From contig JAUNIO010000001.1 in assembly GCA_030535355.1 (NCBI GenBank), forward strand, positions 3,983 to 67,982: a stretch of 64,000 nt of DNA, given 5' to 3'. Position 1 is the first letter of the stretch; each line of letters begins with the position of its first letter. Position numbers and translations under genes: made by a program. Source of the stretch: a bacterium (lineage in GTDB: Bacteria; Vulcanimicrobiota; Xenobia; Xenobiales; Xenobiaceae). Of this stretch, positions 3,001 to 61,322 are shown piece by piece. The notes under the pieces are model-generated. The model did not search any database and was not told the origin of the DNA. It saw nothing but the letters and a program-made list of their open reading frames with translations.

Positions 3001-3506
3001 GAGCCAGAGCTGGTCACAGCAATCGCGCGGACAGGAGCCGTTTCATTGACGTTCATATACGCCACGCCATCTTTAACGGTGACGTTCTCTGGATCAATTT
3101 CGTGGTCCACGACTTTGTCGCTGTTAACTATGACCTTAGCCGTAGCGGAGAGGTTGTCACAGTAGGCAGTTACAGTAGTCGAACCGACTTTTAACGCTGT
3201 GACTTTGCCGCCCGTCACGCTGGCAATAGTTTCATCGGCCATACGCCAGCTGGCACGATCGGTAATACGCGATGTAGTACCGTCGCTGTACGTACCTATG
3301 GCATCGACCTTCGCGGCCAAGCCCACAGGCAGTTTCACCGTCGTATAATCCAAAGTAATTTTTGTGAGTCTGGTTCCAGTAGAACCTGATGAACCATGTC
3401 CATCTGAGTCGTAGCAGCCACCGGCAAACAGTGGCAACAACACCAACAAGGCTAGCAAATAACTCAAGCTAAGCCGTCGTTGAGCGGTGTGGCTGTGTTG
3501 TAGCAC
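1..3506 (-). CDS. Giant surface lipoprotein built of >=13 tandem bacterial Ig-like (Big_2-type) domains; partial, C-terminus runs off the left window edge
   Basis: Own translation of the minus strand: the frame is open from GTG at 3506 (AGGAGG 6-7 nt upstream, ~3512-3517) down to position 1 with no stop. It is therefore absent from the ORF track, because the stop lies outside the window. N-terminus is a signal peptide plus lipobox-like LFAGGC. Then ~85-90 aa repeats follow with the Big_2 pattern (L.SI.I.P..L.L..G...QL.A.G.YSDGT..D.T..V.W.SSD..VATV...G.VTAV..GTA.ITA...G....C.VTV). Plus-strand ORFs 382-3165 are antisense artefacts of this gene. Confidence 0.8.
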   Translation of the reverse strand, partial: MLQHSHTAQRRLSLSYLLALLVLLPLFAGGCYDSDGHGSSGSTGTRLTKITLDYTTVKLPVGLAAKVDAIGTYSDGTTSRITDRASWRMADETIASVTGGKVTALKVGSTTVTAYCDNLSATAKVIVNSDKVVDHEIDPENVTVKDGVAYMNVNETAPVRAIAVTSSGSVIDLTDVVSWNSSDTNVAEVKPVTANAAAKGLGVYIITHNPGKAIITASNEKGQVLCSLTVIVTDGKLVKLTMSSEAMTVPVGLQKSISVKGQYSDGTSSDVTALVTWSSSDEAVANIVFPANGDKSAPKVAGYTAGTATITASLDNLKTTCKVTVKDDAQITKIEFVETSPEVFVGDSDTLKVIATLADGSTVDVTDQVEFSSSNPKVATVESASTGGEAGKITGVEAGTATITATINGQTATVKVTVKAVTLTAITIDPETVSTPLGVAVTVKATGVYDNGTTKDITGSAEWTTSDAAVAVVEKGKITPKSVGGPIDVTASLDECSASCKVTVKDAVLKSIAIEPATISVFAGHDYENKLVAKGTFTDGETIELSEGLTWTTDKSSVATVSEDGTVSGVSAGKANIKVKSGNITSSACVVKVSAVKLKSITLEPDAVLLPNGESTTEALKAKGTYNDGTVAYLTDNLEWKSKDTSIAIVMDGVITGKTVNAETDVYVVCDKVTSSNCHVTVTDAKLKSITVTPSALSIAKGLTDTVHATGVYSDGTTKEISNLVTWTSTQETYAAVTEKTATGATVKGLAVGSSALTAAYDGVDSGDSKCTVEVTAAVPVSIAIQETTASAPAGLTAELSAKAVMSDESEPASTPALTWTSSDTSVATVDANGVVTGVKPGTATISATSGDLPCSQTCAVTITDAVLQSMTITPNSVTLSAKQGKNVKVEGKFSDGSTKTLTDADGLTWSTDKAEVATAINSVITAGETTGDTATITVKHTATELTATCAVTVNDATLDSITFEPASLTVVEDLTGTIKAIGHFSDGREDELTGVTFTSSNPAVATVDDNGTVTAVAEGTATIIAKWNGVTSDPGCAVEVTAPVLQSIALEPLELTLDVSGTGTVKATGTYNNNRTVDISKLADWTSSDTNIVRITAKADGGSTITARASGTANITASYDGISCDAPCVVKVTAKLKSITLDPAAPTMSVGLSTQMKAMGSYDDGST

Positions 3507-3804
3507 GACATTACCTCCTATTATCTTTTAACAATGCACCCCAATAACAACCAGGTACAAATTATTGCTTAATTAGTTTATCTTCGCAAAAACTCATTTC
3601 GTCCCTGCCACGTTCGACTCATTTTCGATAAAATCAGCTTCAGTTTAGATAAGCGTTTTCTAAAGACTATGATGCCCCCACTAACTATTAATACTTATTA
3701 AAACTAAAACATACCTAGTTAAGCAGCGCCTAAGCAATTCTGTGCGCCAATGCTAGTAGAGTACCCAAAAGAGGCAAACCAATCTTTAACGCGAAAACGC
3801 ACCC

Positions 3805-6504
3805 ATGACTATGGCAGAAACAGGATCAGAGAGCGCTCAGACGGCAGAACGCGGCCAGCATTACATAGTTGGCATAGATTTAGGAACGACGAATTCAGCT
3901 ATTGCGCGCATTTCCCGCAGCGGCAGCACCCTCGAAAATCAGCTCATTTGGCAGAGAGTATCTGCCGACCAATTAGCGGAGCTGAGGACCCTGCCCAGCT
4001 TTTTGTACTTACCAGGGCCTCACGAGCTGCCTCCTCAGGCCCTACAGCTGCCCTGGAGCAATAACTGCTCTTACATTGTAGGTGACTTTGCCCGCACCCA
4101 AGGCTCACGCGTTCCAGGACGGGTAGTCACATCCGCAAAGTCCTGGCTAGCCCATCGGCGCAACGATCCCAATGAAGCTTTCCTACCCCGCGAATCTTTA
4201 CAGAATACTCCTAAAGTCAGCGCCGTAGAAGCGACCAAGCGCTACCTGATACATTTGCGAGAGGCGTGGGATTACGCCAATCCCCAGCATCCCTTAGCGC
4301 TGCAGAATATCGTCCTCACAGTCCCCGCTTCCTTTGATGAAGTAGCCCGCGAATTAACATTAACTGCTGCTGAGCAAGCCGGCCTATCGCGCATTAATCT
4401 TTTAGAGGAACCCCAGGCAGCTTTTTATGCCTGGCTGTGGCAACATCAAAACTGGCGTCAGGAACTCCAGGGTATAGAACAAATCCTCATCTGCGACATA
4501 GGAGGCGGCACAACCGACTTCACCGCTATTAAGTTTGCCAATGACAGCTTAGAGCGCGTAGCCGTTGGGGAACATCTTATGCTAGGCGGCGACAATTTAG
4601 ACCTAGCTATCGCCCATTTAGCCGAGCCGCGCTTGGGAGGTTCTCTGGATATTCTGCAATGGGGCGTTTTGCGCCACGAATGCCGCCGCGTTAAAGAAGT
4701 TTTATTGGGTGAAGAACCTCCTGAGGAATGCACATTAACTATCCCAGGCAGCGGTTCTAAATTATTAGGAGGAGCGTTAAGCGCTACAATAACCCGCGAC
4801 GAAGTTAATAAGTTAGTACTCGACGGCTTCTTCCCGCTGGTGGGCCTCGATGAGCCAGTGCAGCAGCAAACCCGCCCGGGATTGCGCGAATGGGGATTGC
4901 CATACGCCAGCGATCCCGCTATTCCCAGACATTTAGCGGCCTTTTTGCGTACCCATCAGCTCGAACCAGACGCAGTCCTGTTCAACGGCGGGGCCTGCCG
5001 TCCGGCTGCCATCACCCAGCGTTTGTGTGAGATCCTTCAAAATTGGCGGGGGGGCCGCCGAGTTCGGCTGCTTAACAACTCTGAAGGAGATTTAGCTGTA
5101 GCTCAAGGGGCGGCCGCATTCGGATGGCTTAAGCTGCAGGGCCGCCAGCGCATCAAAGGAGGCACTGCGCGCTCATACTATTTAGGCGTAGCCGAGGGAC
5201 AGGCTCTTTGTGTCGTCCGGCGCAATCAGGAAGAAGGAGTCACACAAGAGATTCAGCAACCAGAATTGCGTCTGCGTTTAGGCATACCTGTAACCCTGCC
5301 GCTTTATTCCTCTACCGAGCGTCCTGAAGATGACTTAGGCAGCCTCACGGCAACAGACTGTTTACGGCCCGCTGGATCACTGGAAACCGTGATCAGCGGG
5401 AATAAAAATGAACACGGAGAGCTGCCCGTGCATTTAGCCGCCCAAGTCACCGAAATTGGGACTTTGGAACTTTGGGCTATTTCTCAAAAGCGCCGCTGGT
5501 CGCTGCAGTTGCCCTTGCGCGGCAAGCGCCAGGCCCCCACCGCACCCGAGCTCGATTTAGCCAAATTGGAACCCCTGCGCCAAAGGTTAATTGCCACTTT
5601 TCTCGCCAAAGTACCTAAAGATTCCCACGCCAAAGCGAGACCGCGCACAGCTATGAGCGCCTTAGAAGAGAGCTTAGGACCGCGCGATTCCTGGTCGCTG
5701 GCTTTAAACCGCTATCTCTGGGAAGGCTTTCTGCAGACCCTTACCCGCCGCCGCAGTTCTCCTGAACACGAAGCGGCCTGGTTCAACGGAGCGGGGTTCT
5801 GCCTACGCCCAGGATTAGGTTACCCATTAGACAGCTGGCGCTCGCAGCAAATGGCCAATATTCTCAGCGACTGGATGCAGTACAACAGCGAAGAGCGCGT
5901 GCGCAAAGAGTGGTGGGTTTTCTGGCGCCGTCTAGCCCCAGGCTTAAGCGAAGACTGTCAGAATGAACTCTGGCATCATATGGCCCCTAAGCTTATGCCT
6001 TCACGCAAACACCTGAAAAGCCGTATAAAATCCCTCCTGCCTTCAGAGATCAACGAATTCCTGCGTTTAGCCGTCAGCCTAGAGCGCTTAGAATTAAGCG
6101 AAAAAATCGCCTTAGGCAATGTTCTCAATCAGCGTTCCCAGCCAAGCGCGGAATTATGCTGGCAGTTAGCCCGCTTAGGAGCCAGGCGTTTGGTTGGCAG
6201 CGGTTCCAATCGCGTTTTGCCACCTGATACTGTAATACCATGGATTGAGCGCTTCCTAGCTGTAACCTCGTGGAATCAGCCCAGAGCCTACGGGTATAGT
6301 TTAGCCGAGATGGCCAGATATACCGGAGAGCGAGATTTAGATGTGCCCGAATCCCTGCGGAAGCAAGTCGCCCAGCGCCTGCAGCGGGAAAACTTAGCAG
6401 AAGCTGCCCTAATAGTCAGCGAAATTACAGCTATAGAAGAAGAAAACCGCGCTCATTTGCTCGGCGATACTCTTCCCCTAGGGCTGCACCTGACTGATCA
6501 TTAA
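3805..6504 (+). CDS. Hsp70/actin-superfamily ATPase (DnaK-like nucleotide-binding domain) fused to a ~400 aa C-terminal domain of unknown function
   Basis: ORF 3805..6504 (899 aa). Contains 'IVGIDLGTTNSAIA' (Hsp70 phosphate-1 motif) and 'ILICDIGGGTTDFTAI' (phosphate-2 motif). No recognisable DnaK substrate-binding domain or EEVD tail. The C-terminal half is Arg/Trp-rich and unrecognised. Start 3805 vs 3811 is ambiguous and there is no strong SD. Confidence 0.7.
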   Translation: MTMAETGSESAQTAERGQHYIVGIDLGTTNSAIARISRSGSTLENQLIWQRVSADQLAELRTLPSFLYLPGPHELPPQALQLPWSNNCSYIVGDFARTQGSRVPGRVVTSAKSWLAHRRNDPNEAFLPRESLQNTPKVSAVEATKRYLIHLREAWDYANPQHPLALQNIVLTVPASFDEVARELTLTAAEQAGLSRINLLEEPQAAFYAWLWQHQNWRQELQGIEQILICDIGGGTTDFTAIKFANDSLERVAVGEHLMLGGDNLDLAIAHLAEPRLGGSLDILQWGVLRHECRRVKEVLLGEEPPEECTLTIPGSGSKLLGGALSATITRDEVNKLVLDGFFPLVGLDEPVQQQTRPGLREWGLPYASDPAIPRHLAAFLRTHQLEPDAVLFNGGACRPAAITQRLCEILQNWRGGRRVRLLNNSEGDLAVAQGAAAFGWLKLQGRQRIKGGTARSYYLGVAEGQALCVVRRNQEEGVTQEIQQPELRLRLGIPVTLPLYSSTERPEDDLGSLTATDCLRPAGSLETVISGNKNEHGELPVHLAAQVTEIGTLELWAISQKRRWSLQLPLRGKRQAPTAPELDLAKLEPLRQRLIATFLAKVPKDSHAKARPRTAMSALEESLGPRDSWSLALNRYLWEGFLQTLTRRRSSPEHEAAWFNGAGFCLRPGLGYPLDSWRSQQMANILSDWMQYNSEERVRKEWWVFWRRLAPGLSEDCQNELWHHMAPKLMPSRKHLKSRIKSLLPSEINEFLRLAVSLERLELSEKIALGNVLNQRSQPSAELCWQLARLGARRLVGSGSNRVLPPDTVIPWIERFLAVTSWNQPRAYGYSLAEMARYTGERDLDVPESLRKQVAQRLQRENLAEAALIVSEITAIEEENRAHLLGDTLPLGLHLTDH

Positions 6505-6546
6505 ATAGCATTGCCTAAAATTTAATGCCGTTTTGTTTCATGCCGC

Positions 6547-6586
6547 TTAGTTAGCGATCAGCTAACCCGCGAACTATCCAGTCCCA
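6547..6586 (+). repeat. Intergenic repeat family, copy A (core only: AGTTAGC-GATCA-GCTAACc hairpin + GCGAACTATCC)
   Basis: tagTTAGCGATCAGCTAACccGCGAACTATCcagtccc lies 40 nt after the stop of the Hsp70-like gene and abuts the stop of the convergent zinc-ribbon gene. It matches copies B-F. Confidence 0.7.
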
Positions 6587-6597
6587 AGTTTATATTA

Positions 6598-6807
6598 TCA
6601 TCCCATAATATCGAGGCTGTGCCCCAAATATTTATTTTGCTGATGACGGGCCACAACTTCACGCGGCAGGCGAATTAAACCGCCGCACTCGGGACAGCTA
6701 CAAACATCCCCTTCCAAAGCAGCTGTCAAATCTTCATCGCTGAGCACAGAGCCGCAATGAGGACAGGTTATGCGTTTAACCGGCTGTACGTTTCCTAATT
6801 CTGCCAT
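6598..6807 (-). CDS. Small zinc-ribbon protein (CPHCG...CPECG), function unknown
   Basis: ORF 6598..6807, 69 aa. Two CxxC pairs spaced ~20 aa apart. ATG is preceded by GAGGG with a 6 nt spacer. Convergent with the Hsp70-like gene. Confidence 0.6.
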   Translation of the reverse strand: MAELGNVQPVKRITCPHCGSVLSDEDLTAALEGDVCSCPECGGLIRLPREVVARHQQNKYLGHSLDIMG

Positions 6808-7029
6808 GCTGAACCCTCACAATAAAACGGCTGCCCTGCTTTCTCCACTACGAAAACCACGAGGAAAACAGAGCAAAAAATATTAATAATTAAAACTAAA
6901 TTATTGGTAATTAATATTATAATGCTAATTATAAGGCTATTATAATTGTTAGTGGTTCACTTCAACCTAAAACCTCCCTGCTAAAAAATATCATGTTAAA
7001 AAATATCATTTAGTTAGTGCTTAATGCCG

Positions 7030-7079
7030 TAGTTAGCGATCAGCCAACTTGCGAACTATCTGACTCACCCTAAAGGATG
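7030..7079 (+). repeat. Intergenic repeat family, copy B (core)
   Basis: tagTTAGCGATCAGCcAACttGCGAACTATCtgaCtCaCCCTAAAGGATG, 5 nt before copy C and in the same orientation. Confidence 0.75.
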
Positions 7080-7084
7080 TCTTA

Positions 7085-7192
7085 TCATTTAGTTAGCGAT
7101 TAGCTAACTAGCAAACTATCTAACTCCCCCTAAAAGATGGGAAGGAGAGATGTCGCGGCTGCGACAGAGGGGGTGCCCAAGACTGTTGGGGA
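7085..7192 (+). repeat. Intergenic repeat family, copy C (core + extended module GGAGAGATGTCGCGGCTGCGACAGAGGGGGTGCCCAAGACTGTTGGGG)
   Basis: The core atttagTTAGCGATtAGCTAACtaGCaAACTATCtaaCtCCCCCTAAAaGATG is followed by a ~50 nt extension. The extension is ~85% identical at nucleotide level to the extension in copy E and has two hairpins, GTCGC-ggct-GCGAC and CCCAA-gactg-TTGGG. It overlaps the first 43 nt of ORF-track ORF 7150..9171. Confidence 0.75.
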
Positions 7193-7242
7193 GAAAACAG
7201 CAAAAAGGAACCTCTGTACAATTTCCAGAACATTGCAAAGTT

Positions 7243-9171
7243 ATGACACCAGACATTTTGGGTAATCGCTATTTATTGCAAGAACGTATAGGCGAAGGCG
7301 GCATGGGCAAAGTTTTTTGCGCTTATGACCGTGAAACCGGCAATGACGTTGCCATAAAATTACTGCACGGCAGACTGACCAAAAGAGAACGCTCCTGCCG
7401 GCGTTTTAAGCGCGAGGCCATGATAGCCATCCACCTCAGTCATCCCGGCATAGTTAAAGTTTACGATTACGGCACCGAACCGCGTCCCTACATCGTAATG
7501 GAAAAGTTGGAAGGCTTGCCACTGCGCAAATACATCCGCTCCCATCAATTAGATTATATTCAAGTTCTGCAGCTGGCGCTGCAAATATGCGATATACTGC
7601 ATTACGCCCACGGCAAAGGAATTGTCCACCGCGACCTCAAGCCGGATAATATTATCGTCGAACCCAATGGCCGCGTAAAACTGCTCGATTTCGGCTTAGC
7701 CCGCATGACTAAAAATACCAATTTATCGGCGCTTACCAAACAGGGCACGGCTTTAGGCACATGCTCCTATATGGCACCAGAACAAGCTGCGGGCAAAGAA
7801 GCAGATGAACGTTCCGACCTCTACTCTTTAGGTATAATTCTTTACGAGTTTATCGTAGGCATGACGCCGTTTTCCGCTGATGATCAGGAAGCGATACTCT
7901 ACATGCAGGTGCATCAAAAACCGGAACCGCCCTGTCAGGTGAACCCTGATTTACCCAAGCCCGTCGGCGATTTACTGCTGTGGATTCTCAATAAAAGGCC
8001 AGAAGACCGTCCTCAGTCCGCTCTGCAGCTCAAACACAAAATTGAAGAGATATTAGCATATTTAGAGCAAAACGCCCGTCTCAGCCGTCCTTCCGTTTTG
8101 CTTCCCGATCCCAACGAAATTCACGGCGCTGGCGTAAAGATAATTAATCGCTACCCCGAAGCGGATCCGGACACTGCGCCTATGCCCAATGTCTCAGCTA
8201 AAACACCAAACGTTCCTGCTTTTATCCCCGCCCCAGGAACAGCCCGTCTCCCCGAAAAAGACCCCTGGCCCAAGCGTCTGCCTATAACCGTGCGCAATTC
8301 CCAACCGCAGTCAGCTCCGACTCAGTCGTTACTAGCGCCACCAGCACGGCCTGCCCTAAAATCCAAGAAGTACCTGCTTTCTTTAGAAGAAGATGGTCAG
8401 CACACTCTAAACAACAAAGTTAACGCTCAGCTCACTCCTGGCAGTGTCATAAGATCGAGTGTAGAAAACGAGCTGGCTGGTTTCGACTTTCCAGAAGTAG
8501 AATTCAGCTTCCCTCAGCCAGAAGCTGCCCGCCAGTCTTCCCAGCCCCTAGCCCAAGAACAGCCAGCGCCGCCTATGCCGGCTAGACAGCGCCACATGAC
8601 ACAGTATCAGCTGCGCCGCACCACCAAAACTCAGCCTGGCAAACGCTGTCTAGTTACCATGCTGTATATGGCAGTAGATAAGTACAGTCATTTATGTCAT
8701 GAAAAACAGACATTGATAGAATTGAGCGAAGCTATGACCTACAGTCTGCGCGAAGCTGTAGATTCCTACAAGGGACAGCTGCGCAAAAGCAGCAGTGAAG
8801 CGCTATCGGCACTGTTTACTGGGACTCAGAGCGGGCTGCGGGCCGCCCAAGCTGCCCAGAAAATGCGCCGGGAATTAGAAGCTATTAAACTGAGTTTTGG
8901 CATAAACAGCGATATAGCTTTAAAAGTGGGCATATACAGCACAGAGCTACTGCTCACCGCTGATGATCGGCTTCGCGAAGGAGAAGAAAACAATCTGCGT
9001 TTTTATGCAGAGCGTTTGGCCAGTATTTCCCGCACCGAAGCCCGAGGGGCTACAGTTGTCAATTCCGAAAGCCTTGACAAAAACATGCAGTACGAGTTTC
9101 TGCGCACTATTTATATTGGCGGCGGGCGCAGCGACGCCGTATATCTGCATAAAATAACCGCACTTCCTTAA
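7243..9171 (+). CDS. Hanks-type Ser/Thr protein kinase with a ~370 aa C-terminal extension
   Basis: ORF-track frame 7150..9171. Kinase motifs: GEGGMGKV (Gly loop), VAIK, HRDLKPDNII, DFGLAR, SYMAPE. I place the start at the internal ATG 7243 (MTPDILGNRYLL...), because 7150-7192 is conserved at DNA level with repeat copy E and so is probably non-coding. The C-terminal ~170 aa (CLVTMLYMAVDKYSH...ALKVGIYST) weakly resembles a degenerate class III nucleotidyl-cyclase fold; this is speculative. Confidence 0.8.
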   Translation: MTPDILGNRYLLQERIGEGGMGKVFCAYDRETGNDVAIKLLHGRLTKRERSCRRFKREAMIAIHLSHPGIVKVYDYGTEPRPYIVMEKLEGLPLRKYIRSHQLDYIQVLQLALQICDILHYAHGKGIVHRDLKPDNIIVEPNGRVKLLDFGLARMTKNTNLSALTKQGTALGTCSYMAPEQAAGKEADERSDLYSLGIILYEFIVGMTPFSADDQEAILYMQVHQKPEPPCQVNPDLPKPVGDLLLWILNKRPEDRPQSALQLKHKIEEILAYLEQNARLSRPSVLLPDPNEIHGAGVKIINRYPEADPDTAPMPNVSAKTPNVPAFIPAPGTARLPEKDPWPKRLPITVRNSQPQSAPTQSLLAPPARPALKSKKYLLSLEEDGQHTLNNKVNAQLTPGSVIRSSVENELAGFDFPEVEFSFPQPEAARQSSQPLAQEQPAPPMPARQRHMTQYQLRRTTKTQPGKRCLVTMLYMAVDKYSHLCHEKQTLIELSEAMTYSLREAVDSYKGQLRKSSSEALSALFTGTQSGLRAAQAAQKMRRELEAIKLSFGINSDIALKVGIYSTELLLTADDRLREGEENNLRFYAERLASISRTEARGATVVNSESLDKNMQYEFLRTIYIGGGRSDAVYLHKITALP

Positions 9172-9282
9172 CAGTCTCGGGCAACAGTCTCGATTAAACA
9201 GCCTTGAGCATTGCCCAGTAAACCATTCATTATTTATTGTTTATCATTTAGTAATATGTACGGCCATTTATTTTGCAGTTTA

Positions 9283-9320
9283 TGTAGCAATTAGCTAAGC
9301 TGCGAACTATCGGACTCCAT
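9283..9320 (+). repeat. Intergenic repeat family, copy D (degenerate core)
   Basis: tgtagcaaTTAGCtaAGCTgcGaACTATCggaCtCC, preceded by 'ttatcatttag' at ~9241-9251. It lies upstream of the membrane-protein/shc pair. Confidence 0.5.
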
Positions 9321-9373
9321 CTATATTAAGCAAAATCAAACTACAGCACCGTTTGACGCTGACGGAGAAACTT

Positions 9374-9826
9374 ATGCTTATAGCCATTCATTACGTCATT
9401 CCGGCTCTTCTTTTAACTGGATCGCTTTGGCTGGCCTACCAGGAATGGGGGTATTTTCGGCAATGCGCCCGCAAGCCATGGCTGCGTTTCCTTCGCCGCA
9501 TTCTAGGGGCCGTCATGCTGTTAGCCATTGGCTGTATGATGAACAAAGGCGACACAACTCTAATTTTCATGGCCAAAGATCAGGTTGCCGAATTAGCCAA
9601 GCAAAACCCGGAATACGCCAACTACTGCCTTAACTACTGGTTAACAGTAATGGCCTTAGTTTTAGGAACTTTAGCCATGGCTGTCTGGGATATAATTGCC
9701 AGTTTTATCAGCATCCGCGCTATGCTCTGCGAAACAGCGCGCGAAGACCTAAAGGCTTTTACAGAAGCGTTAGAGAAAAGCCAAAAACGCAATAAACAGT
9801 CTAAGCAAAAGGAAGAAAATAAATGA
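9374..9826 (+). CDS. Small integral membrane protein (3-4 predicted TM helices), unknown function; translationally coupled to shc
   Basis: ORF-track 9353..9826 begins at a TTG. The in-frame ATG at 9374 has GGAG 6 nt upstream. The protein is hydrophobic (LMLIAIHYVIPALLLTGSLWLAY...). The stop overlaps the shc start (ATGA at 9823-9826). Confidence 0.6.
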   Translation: MLIAIHYVIPALLLTGSLWLAYQEWGYFRQCARKPWLRFLRRILGAVMLLAIGCMMNKGDTTLIFMAKDQVAELAKQNPEYANYCLNYWLTVMALVLGTLAMAVWDIIASFISIRAMLCETAREDLKAFTEALEKSQKRNKQSKQKEENK

Positions 9827-11826
9827 GCGAAAGCAAGGCCATTTTTACTGCTGAACAGGTTCAGCAGCTAAACAAGACCATCGAGGCCAGCGTAAATTGG
9901 CTGCGCCATGAGCAGCACGAAGATGGACATTGGGTGGGCTTTCTTAAGACCAATTCCTCCATTGAAGCCGAATGGATATTTGCTATGTACTTTTTGGGCA
10001 TAGAAAACGATCCCAAATACGACGGCGTAGTCAAAACGCTGATCCACGAACAGCGCGAAGACGGCTCTTGGGAAGCTTACAAAAATGCTCCCACCGGCAA
10101 CATAAGCACCACCGTTGAAGCTTATACAGCACTGCGCATTGCGGGGCAGAATCCCAATTCCAAACGCATGACTCAAGCTAGAGAATGGATATTAGCCCAC
10201 GGCGGTCTTTCTAAAGTCCGCGTCTTCACAAAAATCTGGCTGGCGCTTTTGGGCGAATGGCCCTGGGATGCGACCCCCAACATACCCCCCGAAATTATTT
10301 TACTGCCCAAATGGTTCCCCATCAACATTTGGAAATTCGCCAGCTGGGGACGCGCCACAGCCATTGCTATTGCTCTCTTTTCCTGCAAACGCCCGGTCAA
10401 ACAGTTACCCCCAGATAAACGGCTTGATGAACTATTCCCAGAAGGACGCGACAAAGAAAACTACGCCCTGCCCTGTCCCAAAAGTGCATGGGGACGCTTC
10501 TTCTGGATCGCCGACCGCGTTTTGCAAAAATACGTCAACTGTCCTGTCCAGCCTCTGCGCGACTTAGCTACAAAACTCTGCATCGAGTGGATAATCCGCC
10601 GCCAGGAATCTGATGGATGCTGGGCCGGGATTCAGCCGCCTTGGCTTAACGCCATTATCGGTCTATATTGCCAGGGTTACGCTCTGGATCATCCCGTCGT
10701 AAAAGCTGGCCTAGAAGCCTTCAACGAACCGTGGGCTTACACCAACGAAAACGGCACTTATCTGCAGTGCTGCACATCTCCGGTTTGGGATACCGTGCTC
10801 AGCCTGCAGGCTTTATGGGATTGCGATCTAAGCGCCCGCGACGCCATGGTGCAAAAAGCCATAGACTATACCTTGCGCGAGCAGATAAAAGTTATCGGCG
10901 ATTGGAGCATCAACGCCCCGGTAACGACACCTGGAGGCTGGGCTTTCGAATACCAAAACGATAATTATCCCGACATCGATGACTCTGCCGTAGCGGTCTT
11001 ATCGCTGGCGCGCCACCGCCACGAATCCGCCGATCCTCAAGCGATTGACGAAGCTGTGCAGCGGGGTATGAACTGGATCGAAGCTCTGCGCAGTGACAAC
11101 GGTGCCTGGGGAGCGTTTGACAGCAACAATGACGACGATATTGTCACGCAAATTCCCTTCAGCGACTTCGGAGAGCTGCTCGATCCTCCGTCCGCTGACG
11201 TCACCGCCCACGTCGTAGAAGCTTACGCCTATTTAGGGCGGGACCTCAGCAACAGCACTATCGTGCGCCGCGCCGTCGCTTATCTGCGCCGCGAACAGGA
11301 AGAAGAAGGCTGCTGGTTCGGGCGCTGGGGCGTCAATTACGTTTATGGCACCGGCTGGGTACTGCCAGCGCTTAAAGCCGCCGGCGAAGATATGCAGGCC
11401 GAATATGTGCAGCGCGCCGCTCAATGGCTGTGTTCCAAGCAGAACGAAGATGGCGGCTGGGGTGAGACCTGTGCCTCCTACATGAATCCCGCCCTGCGCG
11501 GGACTGGTGTCAGCACCCCCAGTCAGACTGGCTGGGCTCTAATGGGGCTTTTGGCTCTGGACGACCACAGCTACGACGCTGCTATCATTAAAGGACTAGA
11601 TTATTTGATGCGGACCCAAAAAGACGGCACCTGGGAACAGCCGGAATATACCGGCACGGGCTTCCCGGGCTACGGCATCGGCGAGCGCACCGATCTAGCC
11701 AATAAGAAAACCCTCGACCAAGGCCAGGAACTGGAGCGCGGCTTCATGCTCAATTATGCTATGTACCGCCACTATTTCCCCATGATGGCCTTAGGCCGGG
11801 CACGCAAATACTTTAACAAACAGTAA
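9823..11826 (+). CDS. shc: Squalene-hopene cyclase
   Basis: 667 aa. Multiple QW motifs (HEQHEDGHW, EQREDGSWEAY, RRQESDGCWAG, RSDNGAWGAF, REQEEEGCWFGRWGVNYVYGTG, SKQNEDGGWGE, RTQKDGTWE) and the catalytic DxDD motif (PDIDDSAVAV). Confidence 0.9.
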   Translation: MSESKAIFTAEQVQQLNKTIEASVNWLRHEQHEDGHWVGFLKTNSSIEAEWIFAMYFLGIENDPKYDGVVKTLIHEQREDGSWEAYKNAPTGNISTTVEAYTALRIAGQNPNSKRMTQAREWILAHGGLSKVRVFTKIWLALLGEWPWDATPNIPPEIILLPKWFPINIWKFASWGRATAIAIALFSCKRPVKQLPPDKRLDELFPEGRDKENYALPCPKSAWGRFFWIADRVLQKYVNCPVQPLRDLATKLCIEWIIRRQESDGCWAGIQPPWLNAIIGLYCQGYALDHPVVKAGLEAFNEPWAYTNENGTYLQCCTSPVWDTVLSLQALWDCDLSARDAMVQKAIDYTLREQIKVIGDWSINAPVTTPGGWAFEYQNDNYPDIDDSAVAVLSLARHRHESADPQAIDEAVQRGMNWIEALRSDNGAWGAFDSNNDDDIVTQIPFSDFGELLDPPSADVTAHVVEAYAYLGRDLSNSTIVRRAVAYLRREQEEEGCWFGRWGVNYVYGTGWVLPALKAAGEDMQAEYVQRAAQWLCSKQNEDGGWGETCASYMNPALRGTGVSTPSQTGWALMGLLALDDHSYDAAIIKGLDYLMRTQKDGTWEQPEYTGTGFPGYGIGERTDLANKKTLDQGQELERGFMLNYAMYRHYFPMMALGRARKYFNKQ

Positions 11827-11939
11827 CGCAGTTAAGTCCTGCAATTCCATTATTTCACGCTCGGCATAATTAGAAAACCTGCGGCCATTTGGCTCCGCTG
11901 CAATGGCTGCGGGTTTTTAATTAAGGGAGAAACAGCGTT

Positions 11940-12815
11940 ATGCGGCAATGGCTGGGATATTTAGCGTTTTCTTTAGCGGCACTCTTTTTATTCAGCGCTT
12001 CGGGACAAGCTCTGGAACAAGGAGATCGCGCCCCCAAATTAACCCTCGCTACAGCAGACGGCAAAGTCCTAAATTTGCCTGACAAACAGCTGCCCTCGCC
12101 GACCTTAGTGTGGTTTCCCTTGGCCTGGCGCACTCCAGCTCATCTCTGCGATAAGCTGATCAGCGTAGCCAAAGACAGCCAGGCCACACTAGTGATCATC
12201 CCTATTTACGATTATGCAGGCCTGCAGCGTTTAGCGCATCCGCTAAGCAGCGAGAGCGATTCCGTATCAGCTGACGGCGAACCGGCAAAAAAGTCAGAAT
12301 CTGACAGCCATACTGCTGATCTCCCTGGTCATGAGACAGTGCCTTCAGTGCTCCCCTCTCAAGGACTGCCCAAGCCCGAGGAACAGCCTACCGGCAATTT
12401 ACCGCCAGCCGGAGCTGCAGAACCTGCCGCATCCGGTCAGGAAACGGTGCTCCCTAGCTCTGCCAGCAGTGCCAGCTCCCCGGACAATTTGCCTGCCAGC
12501 GGCAGCCCAACTGAAAATAACGATGTCCCAGCTGTCCCAGAAAAGTTCAGCGCACTGCAGGCCCAGCAACTATTCCGGGAACGCGTAGAAACACTGGCTC
12601 AGCGTTACCCGGAAGCTATTTTTATATGCGATGCCGACAATCAGGCCCTGCTGGCCTACACAGATTCCTTTATAACCAATATTCTGCCCAACCCAGACCT
12701 TTTCATCATCGATGCTCAGGGCTTCATTAGCTGGCGGGCATTTTATCCTGGGTTAACCGTAGGAACGCTGACCAGGGCCATCATTACTGCCCGGCCCAAA
12801 CAGTCAAGTTTTTAG
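11940..12815 (+). CDS. Secreted redoxin/AhpC-TSA-family thioredoxin-fold protein with a ~130 aa Pro/Ser/Ala/Glu-rich low-complexity insertion
   Basis: Signal peptide MRQWLGYLAFSLAALFLFSASGQA. 'GDRAPKLTL...DGKVLNLPD....TLVWFPLAWRTPAHLC' matches the redoxin motif (GdkAPdFtL...vLvFyP.dfTpvC). A late 'LFIIDAQGFISWR' matches the beta-strand before the C-terminal helix. The middle is low-complexity. RBS AGGGAG precedes the start. Confidence 0.55.
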   Translation: MRQWLGYLAFSLAALFLFSASGQALEQGDRAPKLTLATADGKVLNLPDKQLPSPTLVWFPLAWRTPAHLCDKLISVAKDSQATLVIIPIYDYAGLQRLAHPLSSESDSVSADGEPAKKSESDSHTADLPGHETVPSVLPSQGLPKPEEQPTGNLPPAGAAEPAASGQETVLPSSASSASSPDNLPASGSPTENNDVPAVPEKFSALQAQQLFRERVETLAQRYPEAIFICDADNQALLAYTDSFITNILPNPDLFIIDAQGFISWRAFYPGLTVGTLTRAIITARPKQSSF

Positions 12816-12907
12816 AGAAGAGATGCTGGTTTAGCATTCCTTAGCTTATAGCCTGCGCTGCCGTCTAACGCGGCTTCAGCGAAGGTACGACAAGATAAGA
12901 TAAGTCC

Positions 12908-14323
12908 ATGAAATTACTGCTCTGCAAAAAAAAATATATTGCTTGCTTCTTCTTATTAGTTTTAGCCGTTAGCGGCGTAGGCTGTTCTTCGTGGCTGACT
13001 CAAAAGCGCTCCCCCTTCAGCGGGCTCCTTCCGCATGATACGCCTCTCATCGTCGAAGGTGCGCCTGACAGCGTTGTAAAATTCCTGCATCAGCTGGAGA
13101 TTCCCATTCCCGAACTCGGGGAAGGCCTTGATATAGGCCAGATTAACTGCGAACGCCTACTGTACGCGGCCGTACCCTTGGAGAATAACGGCGATTATGC
13201 CGGCTGCCGTCAAACGATCATGCAGACAGTAAACTCTCTTGAAGAGAAATGGACGGAACAGCAATGCTATCCAGTTCCCGATTCCATCAAATTGCCTCAG
13301 TGCCCTTATGGCGGCCAATTGACCTATAACAGCGACGGCCAGCAGTTTACCATAACCTGCCGCGGCAGCGAACACGCGGCTTTGTACAATTCCGTATCAG
13401 GTTTAAACGTTCAGAACTCCAGCAGTCAGCCTCTGATCTTTATTGCTTTCCAATCCGATGATCCCCAATGGCAAAATGCTGCCATCTCCAAAAAATATCC
13501 CCACATCAGAATACTCACTTCCGATCCCCAGCGCACAGTAGAGTATTTAGAGCAAAACGAAAATAATTTAGAGATCAGGTATCCCAAAGAGACCTCTCTG
13601 TATGCCAGTGTAATTAATGAGCACTTGGGAGATTTTTGGAACAGTTTACCTTTATTGCTTCCCGGTGAACGAACGATTATCACCAAAAATTCTCAAACGG
13701 GAATCTATAGCCTACGCTCTGCCTTGCCAGCTTCAGAGAGCAGCCCTTCAGGCAGCAGCCCAGAGAAAGGACTTCCCAGCGCGGAGCGCTGCTGGAAGCA
13801 GCTGCCTCAGGGAGAGATACGCCTGGCTGCCTCTTCTGAACTGCTGCGCCGGATAAACCTGCTGCCCTGGCCTATGCACAGCACAGAAAAAGCTCAGCCA
13901 CTTGTTTTCGGCATCGCCACAGATTCGGTTCCTCATCTAAACAAACTGCTGCCCTCCGTTAACTCCGCTTTCTCCGGACTGACAGAAGCGGGAATTGTCA
14001 TGGAATTCACCGATAAATCATCAGCAGAAAAGGGTCTGAAGAACAGTCCCTGGGGTGACTTAAGCGCGGACAGCAATCCCTACTGCTTTGGAGAGCAGAA
14101 GGACAGCACTCTCAGCATTACCATAGGCGAAAAAATGCCTGAAATAGGGACTAATGTCCCGCTGCTACCGCAAGGCCCCGGTCCAGTTCAGTTAGCCTGT
14201 CAGCTCACGCTCAGCAAAAACGCTCAGGAAAAACGGCGCTATTTAATCAGTGGTGGCTGGCATAACGGCCAGCTGTGGATGGAGATTTTGCCGCAAATCG
14301 AAACAGCTACGCAAAATCATTGA
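12908..14323 (+). CDS. Lipoprotein, unknown function
   Basis: 471 aa. Signal peptide with lipobox (LAVSGVGCSS). No recognisable domain. Confidence 0.55.
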   Translation: MKLLLCKKKYIACFFLLVLAVSGVGCSSWLTQKRSPFSGLLPHDTPLIVEGAPDSVVKFLHQLEIPIPELGEGLDIGQINCERLLYAAVPLENNGDYAGCRQTIMQTVNSLEEKWTEQQCYPVPDSIKLPQCPYGGQLTYNSDGQQFTITCRGSEHAALYNSVSGLNVQNSSSQPLIFIAFQSDDPQWQNAAISKKYPHIRILTSDPQRTVEYLEQNENNLEIRYPKETSLYASVINEHLGDFWNSLPLLLPGERTIITKNSQTGIYSLRSALPASESSPSGSSPEKGLPSAERCWKQLPQGEIRLAASSELLRRINLLPWPMHSTEKAQPLVFGIATDSVPHLNKLLPSVNSAFSGLTEAGIVMEFTDKSSAEKGLKNSPWGDLSADSNPYCFGEQKDSTLSITIGEKMPEIGTNVPLLPQGPGPVQLACQLTLSKNAQEKRRYLISGGWHNGQLWMEILPQIETATQNH

Positions 14324-15006
14324 CGGGACGGCAACTGGCATCCATCCAGCCTAGAGATATAATCAGTGGGGCCATTAGATTCTCTCCATTGCTGTGAAGA
14401 GAGACGATAATATATTGGCGGGGCCATATTGGCATTGGGGAAGACATCCAGACCTTCGTAAATCCATTGGCTCTGGCAGCGCTGAAAGCCCAGTTTTTCG
14501 TAAGTGCGCTGAGCCGCAATATTGTAATTGGCCGTGTCTAGCTCAACAAAATCGCAGCTCAGTTCCTCAAACAGAAACTTCAGCATCATTTGCAGCGAAC
14601 GCGCTCCGTAACCGCGGCGGCGCTCTTGGCTAAGACCGATCACAATGCCCACAATGGCTAAGCGCTGCCCTGACACGTTGCGGGTATTAAAAAAAATGCT
14701 GCCGATCAGTTTTTCATCTGTACAGATGGCCGCATAATTATTAAGCACCCGCTCTAAATTAGCGACATAGTTATCCACAACAGTCTGCACATAAGCTTCC
14801 CCAGCCTGCGGTTTGAGACCAAAAGTATAACGCGCCAATTCGGGATCGCGCAGCCAAACTACAAAATCATTAATTTCATCCTGCCGCAGAGCGCGCAGCG
14901 TCAAGTTCCCGTCAGCATATCCGGGAAATGGAGCATTCACATCATGCAAAGCTACGTTCTCCAATATTATTTTAACGAAACTATTCCAGCATTTCTTTAA
15001 AAGCAA
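14317..15006 (-). CDS. GNAT-family N-acetyltransferase (RimJ/RimL-like)
   Basis: 229 aa. Acetyl-CoA binding motif 'RRRGYGARSLQMM' (R/Q-x-x-G-x-G/A) and 'QRTYEKLGFQ'. Convergent with the lipoprotein gene and overlaps it by 7 nt. Confidence 0.75.
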   Translation of the reverse strand: MLLKKCWNSFVKIILENVALHDVNAPFPGYADGNLTLRALRQDEINDFVVWLRDPELARYTFGLKPQAGEAYVQTVVDNYVANLERVLNNYAAICTDEKLIGSIFFNTRNVSGQRLAIVGIVIGLSQERRRGYGARSLQMMLKFLFEELSCDFVELDTANYNIAAQRTYEKLGFQRCQSQWIYEGLDVFPNANMAPPIYYRLSSQQWRESNGPTDYISRLDGCQLPSRQ

Positions 15007-15070
15007 ATATCTCGCCTTCTTCGAACCTCTTTTTCAAGCCGTTAATTCGGCAAGCGGTCCATAATGTAAT

Positions 15071-15178
15071 ATCATTTAGTTTTTGATCAGCTAACTTGCG
15101 AACTATCTAACTTCCCCTAAAGGATGAGAGGGAGAGAGGCCGCGGCTGCGACAGATGGGGATGCCCAAGACTGTTGGG
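15071..15178 (+). repeat. Intergenic repeat family, copy E (core + extended module)
   Basis: atcatttagTTtttGATCAGCTAACttGCGAACTATCtaaCttCCCCTAAAGGATGagagGGAGAGAGGCCGCGGCTGCGACAGATGGGGATGCCCAAGACTGTTGGG. It is the closest match to copy C. It lies ~130 nt upstream of the trkH/ktrB-like gene. Confidence 0.75.
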
Positions 15179-15308
15179 AAATTCACCGTATGATCAGGCT
15201 ATCCTGGCACGGTATCCTCGAAGCGTTACACCGCAAAAAAGCTATTTAATTTAGCCAAATAAAGGTTAAGTTCATCACAATGTAAAATAGTATTAGGTTT
15301 ATTTTACC

Positions 15309-16673
15309 ATGATCAACCGTTACCATGATTGGGCGGCGGCCCTGTTGCGCTTAACGCCCACGCGCATTATGGTGCTTAGTTTTATTCTGCTGATTTTGCT
15401 TTGCACCGCCATACTAATGCATCCCGCCTGTTACACCAGCAATACCACCCCTAATTTTATCGACGTGGTATTTATGAGCACCAGCGCCGTGTGCATTACT
15501 GGACTGACGACGCTGGACGTGGCCACTGATTTCACGCGTTTAGGCCAATGCGTTATTTTATTTTTCATCCAAATTGGCGGGCTAGGCATGGTAACCTTTA
15601 CTTCCTCTCTCTTAGTCCTGTTTGGTGCCAAATTGGGATTAGGCCACAGGAAGATGCTCCAGGAATATCTGCCCGGCATAGAGATGTCCAGCATCCTCCG
15701 CGTCACCAAATACGTAGTGCTGGTATTTTTTGTCGTTGAGCTGTTAGGCGCACTGATCTTATCCTTGGTCTGGGTGCCCATTTACGGCTGGGGCGATGGC
15801 CTATTCCACGCTTTGTTCCACTCCGTAGCCTCGCTCTGCAATGCTGGAATTTCCACAATTCCCAACGGCTTAATAACGTATCGCTCTAACGTACTCATCA
15901 ATTTCACGGTGATGGCCATGGTGATAGTCGGCGGTTTAGGATATGTGGTCATCATTGAATTTGTCAAGTTTTTTGTCGGCAAAGACAGAGCTTCTATGCA
16001 CCACCGCCTGCACATCCGCATCGTGCTGATGACCAGCCTTATTCTCACCATAATCGGGGCTATAGGCATATTTTTATTCGAAAACAGCAACCCGGAACTC
16101 AATTCCAATTCTCTAGGGACTGCTATCATGGCCGCCCTTTTTCAGTCGGTCACCTGCCGTTCCTGCGGCTACAGCACTGTAGATATAAGCTCTTTTGAGC
16201 CCTATACAAAACAGTTTATGATGGGGTTAATGTTCATCGGCGGAGCTACAGGATCAACAGCCAGCGGCATCAAAGTCACTACATTCGCCCTTTTAATCAT
16301 GGCCACTTGGGCGCAGATCAAAGGCAAACGCGACATTGAAATCGAAGGGCGCCGTATTCCCTGGACCCGCGTGGCCCACGCGACTTCATTAACCATCATC
16401 GCTTTCTTTACGGTCATTGCTGTAATAGTTATCCTGAATTATTTAGAGCCCAATATCGATTATGCCGATTTGGTTTTCGATGCGGTTTCCGCTTTAGGAA
16501 CAGTCGGCCTATCGACCGGAGTGCCGTCCCGCTGCGGAGTATTAGCCAAACTGCTTTTTTGCGTGTGCATGTTTATTGGCAGGCTGGGGCCTTTTACCGT
16601 AGCCTTAAGTTTAATTTCCCAGCCCAATCCTCAGCACACTACTTACCCTGAAGGCAATATTCTCATAGGGTAG
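15309..16673 (+). CDS. TrkH/KtrB-family potassium uptake protein (membrane subunit)
   Basis: 454 aa polytopic membrane protein. It carries the four selectivity-filter-like glycine motifs typical of the family (GLTTLD, GGLG, CNAGIS, GLSTGV). No trkA/ktrA gene is adjacent. Confidence 0.8.
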   Translation: MINRYHDWAAALLRLTPTRIMVLSFILLILLCTAILMHPACYTSNTTPNFIDVVFMSTSAVCITGLTTLDVATDFTRLGQCVILFFIQIGGLGMVTFTSSLLVLFGAKLGLGHRKMLQEYLPGIEMSSILRVTKYVVLVFFVVELLGALILSLVWVPIYGWGDGLFHALFHSVASLCNAGISTIPNGLITYRSNVLINFTVMAMVIVGGLGYVVIIEFVKFFVGKDRASMHHRLHIRIVLMTSLILTIIGAIGIFLFENSNPELNSNSLGTAIMAALFQSVTCRSCGYSTVDISSFEPYTKQFMMGLMFIGGATGSTASGIKVTTFALLIMATWAQIKGKRDIEIEGRRIPWTRVAHATSLTIIAFFTVIAVIVILNYLEPNIDYADLVFDAVSALGTVGLSTGVPSRCGVLAKLLFCVCMFIGRLGPFTVALSLISQPNPQHTTYPEGNILIG

Positions 16674-16762
16674 CGAACCGAAAGCTAAACTCGATTTGAA
16701 ACCGTTCGCACATTGACGTACCGCTAATATAATACTTATAATTCCCTCTAAAGGTAATGCCG

Positions 16763-16810
16763 TTAAGTTAGCGATCAGCTAACCTGCAAACTATCTGACT
16801 CCCCATAAAG
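16763..16810 (+). repeat. Intergenic repeat family, copy F (core)
   Basis: gttaagTTAGCGATCAGCTAACctGCaAACTATCtgaCtCCCCaTAAAGG, ~150 nt upstream of the J-domain gene. Confidence 0.75.
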
Positions 16811-16956
16811 GTAATATCAGCACACCTTAACTAAATGACAGTTAAAATTAAACTAATAAAGATATTGTGCAGGTATTTAACCAAGCAACGCGAAGATTTC
16901 GGTTTGTTGACTATACAGATTTCCTAAATTTTGCTACAAAGGAGATGAGCTAATCA

Positions 16957-17644: not shown

Positions 17645-17676
17645 CAGGCTGCCGATTTAGCAGCCTGTTTTTATTA
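17645..17676 (+). terminator. Rho-independent terminator of the J-domain gene
   Basis: CAGGCTGCcgatttaGCAGCCTG followed by TTTTTATT. Confidence 0.7.
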
Positions 17677-17734
17677 GCAGTTAAGCGTCAGACACACACC
17701 CGCACTGTTGGATGTTTTGATGGATAGCTAACCA

Positions 17735-17806
17735 CCAACTAAACGGCCCAAACTAAACGGCACCACATAAACGGCACCAGCTAAACGACGCTAACTAAAC
17801 GGCACT
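17735..17806. repeat. Imperfect short tandem repeat, 5 copies of (a)CTAAACGGCAC, period 13-16 bp
   Basis: aactaaacggccc / aactaaacggcac / ataaacggcac / ctaaacgacgc / actaaacggcac lie between the J-domain gene and the hutU stop. A single related copy (ggccaactaaacgacat) is at ~20652-20668, upstream of the rodA-like gene. Confidence 0.6.
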
Positions 17807-20579: not shown

Positions 20580-20756
20580 TTAGCATTACCTCAATATGTG
20601 TTTTTAGCAAAGTCAATTAAGGGTAGTTAGATAGTTAGCAGATTAGTTAAAGGCCAACTAAACGACATAAGCGTTTCTAGGAATAGGAAATATTCTACTT
20701 AAGCAGGAAATTTACTTTTTGGCGCTCAGCAGCGCACATCAACTAAGCAGGATAAC

Positions 20757-21966: not shown

Positions 21967-22545
21967 TTAATGCTTGCCGGAACGGCAGCGGCAATAGGCT
22001 AAATCCTGATCGATATAGTTAACAGCGGCATCGATAACTTCGACGTCATTGATCTGACCGTGACCGACGATCGCCGCAGCAAACAGAGCGGAATGATCGA
22101 CAGGCTCGCAGTTCTCAGCTTTTTGCTTCTCCACCATCTTTTTAATATCATCGTAGATGGCAGTAAGAATGTTCCTTTCAGCTTCGGGAGCGTTTTTCAG
22201 GGACATACCCAGCCTGTCGGCTGCCTCTTCCAGATTCTTTTCCAAGCGCTCTAAAGAACGGAACTTGCAATAAGCCAAATCCTGGTCGATATAATTGACG
22301 GCAGCTTCGATCATAGCCGCATCGTTGATTTGTCCATGTCCGACTATCGCGGCAGCAAAAAGCGCAGAAGCGTCGATCGCTTCACTATTTTCAGCTTTCT
22401 GCTTTTCGGCCATCTTTTTAATATCATCGTAGATGGCGGTCAGAATAACTTTCTCCTCTTCGGGAGCGTTTTTCAGGGACATACCCAGCTTTTCACCGGC
22501 GTCTTCTAAGTTCTTTTCCAGTTGCTCTAACGTAATCTCCGCCAC
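21967..22545 (-). CDS. Protein made of two tandem ~95 aa repeats (unknown family)
   Basis: ORF-track 21967..22560 begins at a TTG. GTG at 22545 has GAGGT 6 nt upstream. The two halves are ~80% identical (LEKNLE[DE]A[GA][ED][KR]LGMSLKNAPE.E[KR].ILTAIYDDIKKM.EKQKAEN.E..D.SALFAAAIVGHGQIND....I.AAVNYIDQDLAYC). The DNA halves, ~21990-22270 and ~22270-22550, are clearly repeated. Confidence 0.6.
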   Translation of the reverse strand: MAEITLEQLEKNLEDAGEKLGMSLKNAPEEEKVILTAIYDDIKKMAEKQKAENSEAIDASALFAAAIVGHGQINDAAMIEAAVNYIDQDLAYCKFRSLERLEKNLEEAADRLGMSLKNAPEAERNILTAIYDDIKKMVEKQKAENCEPVDHSALFAAAIVGHGQINDVEVIDAAVNYIDQDLAYCRCRSGKH

Positions 22546-22648
22546 GGCTTTACCTCGCAAAAGTTTATTGGGAAAGAAAAATTTCGCCTGTACTGTCAGC
22601 TTTCCTCCTACTGTCGCTGCGTTAAGGCATAAGAACGCGGCTCAGCTG

Positions 22649-27524: not shown

Positions 27525-27798
27525 AGTAGTATACCTCCTGCATACGGTCATGAGACCTATATTACTTATCTTTATTTTCACTTCAAAAGTGCAAAAGTTA
27601 ATAGGATGCAACAAAAAACATAGAGACAATTATGTAAAAATATTTTTAATTTGTTTATGCAAATTGTTACAATAAATAAAAAGCCAAACATTATATTATG
27701 CTCGGCTTTTTATTTACCTTTTCAGCTTGCTAGCGTGACGCTCTCAAGCAGCGCTTCACCAGCAAAGCCAATGCGCCAAAGTTAAAGCAAATTCATCA

Positions 27799-49210: not shown

Positions 49211-49397
49211 TAGTAAGCCTCCAAACCGACAAAGCATTTAAAGCTTGCGGTCTTTGTAGTATTAGTATCGGTTTTATGCCGAATAGTTAAACGGTAAAGT
49301 GGCAACAAAGTTTCTATGCCCAAAGCTATATTCCTGCTAGAGCTAGTCAAAATCTAAGCCGACCTAAGCCGACTTGCCATTCCGCTATATTCGGCCC

Positions 49398-61245: not shown

Positions 61246-61322
61246 CGGGGCGTAGCGCAGCCTGGCAGCGCGCAACGTTCGGGACGTTGAGGTCGAAGGT
61301 TCAAATCCTTTCGCCCCGACCA
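61246..61322 (+). tRNA. tRNA-Pro (anticodon CGG)
   Basis: Manual fold: 7-bp acceptor (CGGGGCG/CGCCCCG), D-stem GCGC/GCGC, anticodon stem CAACG/CGTTG with loop TTCGGGA, T-stem GAAGG/CCTTT with loop TTCAAAT. Discriminator A and encoded CCA. Confidence 0.85.

Follow-up and report, generated by a model that had tools for sequence, protein, structure and literature searches.

We analysed a stretch of 64,000 nucleotides (the window) from the bacterial assembly GCA_030535355.1, contig JAUNIO010000001.1, in which short repeats occupy the gaps of a conserved gene block. The block begins with genes for an Hsp70-like protein, a zinc ribbon, a Ser/Thr kinase, a membrane protein, squalene-hopene cyclase, and two unknown proteins, and continues with GNAT, TrkH, DnaJ/TPR, urocanase, RodA, and dCTP deaminase. 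Proteins encoded in the window match those of an NCBI metagenome-assembled genome (locus tag Q4F00) at 100% identity. The Hsp70/DUF3731 protein has its nearest named homologues in Candidatus Xenobium, Candidatus Bruticola, UBP9, Candidatus Xenobia, and Candidatus Eremiobacterota, and the genome is accordingly assigned to class Xenobia. An earlier reading of the sequence alone (the sequence-only reading) had taken the repeats for a cis-acting element such as a leader RNA, operator, or riboregulator, with a mobile element as the alternative. In our analysis, the repeats are very probably copies and fragments of a lineage-specific family of miniature inverted-repeat transposable elements (MITEs) of Candidatus Eremiobacterota, class Xenobia (host-associated).

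Searched with an nhmmer profile of the ~65-nt core, the window yields seven copies (E-values 1.4e-14 to 4.5e-19), six on the plus strand and one on the minus strand. The six plus-strand copies had already been noticed from the sequence alone and are recovered at 6536-6597, 7021-7080, 7078-7141, 9270-9330, 15065-15127, and 16753-16814 (E 2e-15 to 5e-19). A repeat-family search of the window also groups these six (families D5, D6, and D8). In addition, the 20-mer TTAGTTAGCGATCAGCTAAC has five matches in the window with at most three mismatches, compared with 0.00 expected. The family occupies ten sites in the window and one just outside.

The most upstream site (6536-6597, plus strand, nhmmer E 2.7e-15) is a left-end fragment that retains the end motif ATGCCGCTTAGTTA (one mismatch) and the hairpin region. 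It lies between the Hsp70-like gene, which ends at 6504, and the convergent 69-aa zinc-ribbon gene (6598-6807, minus strand), and it abuts the stop codon of the latter. The zinc-ribbon protein (CPHC...CPEC) is conserved between the Hsp70/DUF3731 and Ser/Thr kinase genes in all relatives examined. Upstream of the kinase, on the plus strand, a solo end motif ATATCATTTAGTTAGTG at 7003-7023, a perfect match to ATRYCRTTTAGTTA, abuts the next copy, a ~60-nt left-end unit at 7021-7080 (nhmmer E 2.9e-17) that is the first of a head-to-tail pair. The other member, at 7078-7195, is the left half of the element, with end motif, core, and extended module (left-120 profile E 4.8e-35). It is truncated, without a right end, and is followed by the native kinase leader (AAAAAGGAACCTC...) and the kinase start at 7244. 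The module had been described as running into the kinase open reading frame (ORF). However, the gene calls on L001, a contig of this genome, and in a relative start the 642-aa kinase at 7244, and the overlap is apparent only because the longest ORF was taken.

Further downstream on the plus strand, in the kinase-membrane protein gap, a degenerate solo end motif (9241-9254) precedes a diverged ~60-nt left-end unit (9270-9330, nhmmer E 2.2e-15). The divergent GNAT/TrkH gap holds an element left half with core and extended module (15065-15185, left-120 profile E 8.5e-34), with the left arm of its hairpin 1 destroyed. As claimed, two copies carry the extended ~50-nt module (7078-7195 and 15065-15185), and these are 84-85% identical to each other. 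In the TrkH-DnaJ gap, a short, internally deleted element at 16753-16843 (plus strand, nhmmer core match at 16753-16814) keeps both ends, with the left end ATGCCGTTAAGTTA at 16757 and the right end, the reverse complement CTGTCATTTAGTTA, at 16828-16841, 85 nt in all.

The claim that all copies lie on the plus strand does not hold. At 17720-17806, the minus strand carries the end motif (G[CT]CGTTTAG...) in about five 14-nt tandem units (array 17733-17806), followed by a degenerate core remnant (repeat families D10 and D11; nhmmer E 0.005, weak). The plus-strand units of the array are CTAAACGGCACCAA-like, that is, reverse complements of the end motif, and stand directly 3' of the urocanase stop codon; a bidirectional terminator-like hairpin lies beside the array at 17645-17667. 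A ~60-nt left-end unit occupies the divergent RodA/dCTP deaminase gap at 20612-20671 (minus strand, inverted repeats I1 and I2, nhmmer E 1.4e-14), and a further minus-strand copy, ~210-295 nt past the window end, is read on Logan contig L014 (2630-2716). The remaining site is a 219-nt segment at 61466-61684 (plus strand), downstream of a tRNA (61246-61319), whose interior is unrelated to the other copies. A weaker relic had been suspected at ~61470-61510. The core profile does not recover it (E 0.59), but perfect inverted end motifs, ATGTCATTTAGTTA ... TAACTAAATGATAT at 61466-61479 (plus) and 61671-61684 (minus), bound the segment.

The core proves to be the left end of a longer element. It comprises the terminal repeat and ~45 subterminal nt, and the extended module is the next ~55 nt. 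Complete copies, found in three related species, are ~205-250 nt long and carry terminal inverted repeats of 16-19 bp with the consensus (C)AATRTCRTTTAGTTAAG, the far end being its reverse complement. The complete copies are non-coding, and the earlier view of a non-coding repeat is borne out: an indel at alignment column 92 makes the reading frames of the copies differ, and the L010 copy contains a stop codon. The end motif ATRYCRTTTAGTTA occurs ten times in the window with at most one mismatch, compared with 0.16 expected. It covers all left ends, the solo motifs at 7003 and 9241, the right end at 16828-16841, the 61466/61684 pair, and the 17733-17806 array. Opposed pairs of end motifs are found at 16757/16841 and 61466/61684 in the window and, in relatives, at 7075/7316 of L007, 4830/5050 of L011, and 4875/5081 of L010.

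The complete copies in relatives carry target-site duplications. The L011 element (CAATGTCGTTTAGTTAAG ... CTTAACTAAATGGTATTG, 225 nt) has a perfect 9-bp duplication, GCTGCGCTC, on both sides. It splits one unit of a 106-nt tandem repeat, of which the next unit is intact (...CTTCGCTGCGCTCAGATG...), and the two BLAST pieces of the interrupted unit overlap by 9 nt. The L010 element (AAATATCGTTAACTTAG ... CTTAAGTTAACATTATAT) is likewise flanked by a perfect 9-bp duplication, ATTAATAGTT. Its excision in silico gives CTATTAATAGTTAGTG, a motif that is present intact twice ~300 nt upstream. The flanks of the L007 element, CTATTGATC and CTATTAATC, match at eight of nine positions. The earlier suggestion of a MITE is therefore upheld by the inverted repeats and 9-bp duplications of these copies. 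Terminal inverted repeats, duplications with empty sites, a small non-coding sequence, and dispersed copies that vary between genomes are features of a MITE that are observed here.

The restored motif CTATTAATAGTTAGTG itself resembles the MITE end, with two tandem copies at ~4540-4575 of L010 and one at 5082-5097 that served as insertion target, which suggests insertion into end-like sequences. Such insertion, or a head-to-tail arrangement, is seen in L010, at 7003/7021/7078 of the window, in L012, and in L020. A second repeat family is present at 4620-4830 and 5053-5087 of L011, at ~4190-4255 of L020, and at ~61540-61600 of the window. It is a ~106-nt tandem repeat (ACCAGCTTTCG..GGCACTGCTTCGCTGCGCTCAGATGTGCC...) in the species of GCA_017444045.1. 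A related motif, GCGAAGCAGCGCAGCG, lies inside the 61466-61684 element, and L014 begins there.

We compared the block with syntenic contigs of relatives at several evolutionary distances, reached via the 471-aa and Hsp70-like proteins. The gene order is kept in these relatives, but the repeats are not. L009 (GCA_024712465.1), with 74% identity in Hsp70, has the full block with zero copies and zero intergenic repeats, and two Candidatus Xenobium loci of 22 kb each (61%) also have zero copies. In L017 (82%), the Hsp70/zinc-ribbon gap is 5 nt, and copies are missing after Hsp70 and in the zinc-ribbon/kinase gap. The species of L007 and L010 (85%) has copies in the zinc-ribbon/kinase gap and in the urocanase-RodA gap, which is 28 bp in the window, and is empty upstream of the membrane protein, TrkH, DnaJ, and RodA. 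The urocanase-RodA copy of L007 faces the 3' end of RodA, with urocanase behind it, and is antisense to both neighbours. In the species of GCA_017444045.1 (L011, L012, and L019-L021; 78%), minus-strand copies flank Hsp70 on both sides, a further copy lies in the GNAT/TrkH gap, and the kinase-membrane protein gap has no copy. The latter gap is 181 nt in the window, and 31 nt in L010 and 57 nt in L019, both without a copy. The window and L012 both have a copy in the gap 3' of Hsp70, in opposite orientations. Filled and empty sites and species differences in the occupied gaps are thus seen directly, as are the architecture of the element and its target-site duplications.

Each copy had been placed 5' of a co-oriented gene. 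However, the fragment at 6536-6597 and the array at 17733-17806 lie between convergent genes, where no orientation faces a gene, as apparently does the copy in L012 (the contig ends before the next gene). Divergent gaps, in which a copy faces a gene whichever way it points and co-orientation is therefore automatic, hold the copies at 7021-7195, 15065-15185, and 20612-20671 and those in L010 and L011. In tandem gaps, three of four copies are co-oriented (9270, 16753, and 61466), and the L007 copy is not. The pattern of copies upstream of a gene in the same orientation is thus mostly a matter of gene geometry.

The predicted structures were examined in six left halves from three species. Hairpin 1 (AGTTAGC/GCTAACT), the 7-bp hairpin of the sequence-only reading, is intact in some copies, but it is destroyed at 15076 and mismatched at 7029, at 9283, and in L007. 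It has zero compensatory changes, and 74% of its cells are paired. For hairpin 2 (GTCGC/GCGAC), the paired share is 96.7%, with four different loops and one U-A to C-G swap, and hairpin 3 (CCCAA/TTGGG) has one A-U to C-G swap. Structure at hairpins 2 and 3 is plausible. The total of two compensatory pairs in these six sequences, though, is reached by 107 of 500 shuffles and is not significant. In the predicted fold of the full L011 element, the terminal repeats pair into a ~20-bp stem (z = -4.0), and the full L007 element gives z = -3.0; the folds of the window copies range from z = -2.7 to +0.1. A search of the whole window with Rfam 15 at the gathering threshold, a check that had been proposed, finds only one tRNA, and in E-value mode two copies give matches at the level of chance elsewhere.

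At the sequence level, left halves at non-orthologous sites of different species are 83% identical, compared with 84% within one genome, while flanking genes are 53-67% identical at their third codon positions. The kinase-gap copies of the window and L010, which are probably orthologous, are 68% identical, close to neutral.

The MITE would insert into intergenic DNA and duplicate a 9-bp target. By inference, a duplication of this length points to a DDE-type transposase that an insertion sequence (IS) would provide in trans. A candidate parent would carry CAATRTCRTTTAGTTAAG ends around a transposase gene. The copies are mostly truncated, internally deleted, tandem, or solo ends and therefore appear old and decaying. 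The left ~120 nt would be kept by selection on the element, through cis sequences for transposition, or by recent spread, rather than by host regulation. Conservation of the left half together with decaying copies is the pattern expected of a transposable element with a cis-required left subterminal region.

Several observations weigh against this explanation. No target-site duplication is recognisable at any window copy, including the two-ended elements at 16753-16843 and 61466-61684. These two are the only window copies that keep both ends, and the clean transposon hallmarks come from relatives. No transposase with matching ends is found among the window ORFs scanned; the DNA scans of the collections covered the core pattern. 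Of the gaps of at least 60 nt, eight of ten are occupied within 6-21 kb, compared with about one of 21 elsewhere in the window, and this clustering is unexplained by transposition alone. It may reflect local hopping, insertion into end-like motifs, and the dense packing of ribosomal and RNA-polymerase operons across 32-60 kb, where the ribosomal-protein operons may not tolerate insertions. Conservation is far stronger in the left ~120 nt than in the species-specific right half. The single compensatory changes and variable loops of hairpins 2 and 3 leave room for an added function. Lastly, the zinc-ribbon/kinase and GNAT/TrkH gaps are each filled in two species in the same orientation.

Some of these points would also be expected of a cis-regulatory element (leader RNA, operator, or riboregulator) through which the kinase, hopanoid, K+ transport, and co-chaperone genes are controlled jointly. 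The clustering within one 14-kb neighbourhood is strong, most window copies precede a co-oriented gene, different species share a conserved left module, two gaps are filled in the same orientation in two species, and the palindrome AGTTAGC-N5-GCTAACT could bind a dimeric protein. However, co-orientation is automatic in divergent gaps and holds for three of four copies in tandem gaps, while copies in convergent gaps (6536-6597, 17733-17806, and L012) stand 3' of genes. The palindrome is broken in several copies with zero compensatory changes, and the short window copies are no more stable than shuffled sequences (z 0.1 to -2.2). Moreover, L009 keeps the gene block without the element, and closer relatives fill other gaps, in L007 with one copy antisense to both neighbours. 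The comparison with relatives has thus already largely refuted a shared regulatory role, and the inverted repeats and target-site duplications demand a transposon in any case. We consider such a role, as the sequence-only reading had proposed it, very unlikely, given that occupied gaps differ between relatives, both orientations occur, hairpin 1 lacks compensation, and the copies have inverted repeats with 9-bp duplications. It is slightly less improbable, though still unlikely, that a MITE was co-opted. Its left ~120 nt (invariant block ACTCCCCCTAAAGGATGG and two hairpins with variable loops) would then serve as a portable cassette (promoter, terminator, RNA structure, or protein-binding site) that alters the expression of neighbours. 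We likewise regard it as unlikely that the element spread such a mobile cassette through the neighbourhood and that, in more than one species, the host has kept it ahead of the kinase and TrkH genes. The greater conservation of the left half than of the right across three species, the pairing of hairpin 2 (96.7%, four loops, one swap) and the swap in hairpin 3, and the two gaps that hold copies in two species are compatible with co-option. On the other hand, covariation is not significant (107 of 500 shuffles), the kinase-gap copies (68% identical) are near neutral divergence, several window copies are without the module or have disrupted stems, and subterminal conservation is expected anyway for transposase binding.

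A REP/BIME-like or IS200/IS605-type hairpin element, mobilised by RAYT or TnpA-Y1, or a small RNA gene family is the least probable explanation and can be given hardly any weight. The hairpins near the end, the stable folds of complete elements (z = -3.0 to -4.0), and the window bias of seven plus to two minus copies would fit it. However, the strand bias lacks significance, and a tandem pair accounts for two of the plus copies. Such families are without terminal inverted repeats or target-site duplications, both of which are found here. No promoter or terminator stands consistently beside the copies, and no Rfam match, tRNA-like gene, or RAYT or TnpA gene is seen.

Additional readings of the copies were tried and rejected. 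L007 and L010 carry on their reverse strands a T-arm-like string, GGAGTTCGATTCCCC, that was considered as part of a tRNA, but ARAGORN finds none. A conserved ATG after AAGGA was considered as a remnant transposase N-terminus (M-x-x-x-[DE]-V-A-x-A-T-E-G-V...); the frame is broken by a frameshift at 15076 and a stop in L010, and its substitutions are not third-position-biased. A candidate sigma-70 promoter, TTGCGA-N16-TAAAGG, in the core goes undetected in the consensus scan, and promoter-like sites in the region are not enriched (22 compared with 16.4 +/- 3.7 expected).

Beyond the window and its relatives, scans with GATYAGCYAACNNGCNAACTATC give only chance matches in unrelated coding sequence (one in genome contigs, four in metagenome contigs, and zero in viral contigs), and a scan of viral contigs with ACTCCCCCTAAAGGATGG gives one chance match, in a phage ORF. 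The family is therefore absent from the scanned collections, or not assembled in them. A search of the plasmid collection in distant mode finds nothing.

Other features of the window concern separate genes. Downstream of the 61466-61684 element lie a gene for a 108-aa product with a GapR_DNA-bd Pfam match (61765-62101, coordinates mapped by offset from L014) and one for a 155-aa product with a CxxCxxCC Pfam match (63196-63663, matching an L014 gene). Two minus-strand ORFs of 582 and 771 aa (25881-27629 and 27849-30164) contain 33/66-nt periodic repeats with GGxGxD-like codons and have no Pfam match at E <= 1e-5. A 276-nt tandem duplication (21980-22530, 76% identity) lies in a 197-aa minus-strand ORF (21967-22560) with no convincing Pfam family. 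An EF-Tu homologue at 48008-49237 (minus strand) has a Cys-rich stretch of 13 residues that is found in no typical EF-Tu and, judged from its sequence, may be a zinc-binding insertion. In the ORF list, positions 1-3800 lack a long ORF on both strands; they contain coding-like repeats (families D14, D15, and D18), which may belong to a pseudogene or to a large repetitive gene that extends past the window start.

The finding points to an active or recently active MITE family, one with clean 9-bp duplications, in host-associated Candidatus Eremiobacterota (class Xenobia), and our literature search found no paper describing MITEs in this phylum. For annotation, the repeats should be masked as mobile-element debris and not taken as leaders or small ORFs; here, they caused a false 5' extension of the kinase ORF. 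For assembly, the copies explain the breaks at these gaps. Short-read assemblies break inside copies in L001, L014, L011, L012, and L019, with L014 starting at about window position 61580, which fits a multi-copy repeat. Insertions that differ between genomes could mark strains and serve as natural experiments on effects on neighbouring genes. If the left module were truly co-opted, it would be a mobile regulatory cassette in an uncultured phylum.

Among known systems, REPs are imperfect palindromes of 20-40 nt that lack both terminal inverted repeats and target-site duplications. The element here resembles REP/BIME in its short, intergenic, sometimes clustered hairpin repeats, and differs in having both terminal inverted repeats and target-site duplications. 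The BOX elements of Streptococcus pneumoniae are modular boxA-boxB-boxC repeats. Like these, the element is modular (core with or without extended module), intergenic, and variable in module number, with tandem module duplication and predicted hairpins. Unlike in BOX, the terminal inverted repeats are clear, 9-bp duplications are made, and module order is set by the left end of a transposon and not by three independent boxes. Target duplications of 9 bp are made by IS1, the IS4 family (IS10/IS50), and the IS903 group of IS5, which have inverted repeats of ~18-23 bp. The element shares the 9-bp duplication and terminal inverted repeats with these, and they are the expected type of autonomous partner, although no transposase gene or matching IS ends are found in the sequences examined here.

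The closest likeness is to bacterial MITEs, of which Correia/NEMIS of Neisseria, RUP of Streptococcus pneumoniae, and Nezha of cyanobacteria are examples. As in these, the copies are ~100-300 nt, non-coding, intergenic, and multi-copy, with terminal inverted repeats and target-site duplications. They also fold into a long hairpin, their presence varies between related genomes, and truncated or internally deleted copies are frequent. In contrast to Correia and RUP, which make a TA duplication, the element here makes a 9-bp duplication. It also differs from known MITEs, as these are generally described, in its unrelated sequence, in the conserved left ~120 nt beside a species-specific right half, and in the ~60-nt left end that recurs as head-to-tail duplicates and solo ends. 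In kind, it is an ordinary repeat in a little-studied phylum and no new kind of system.

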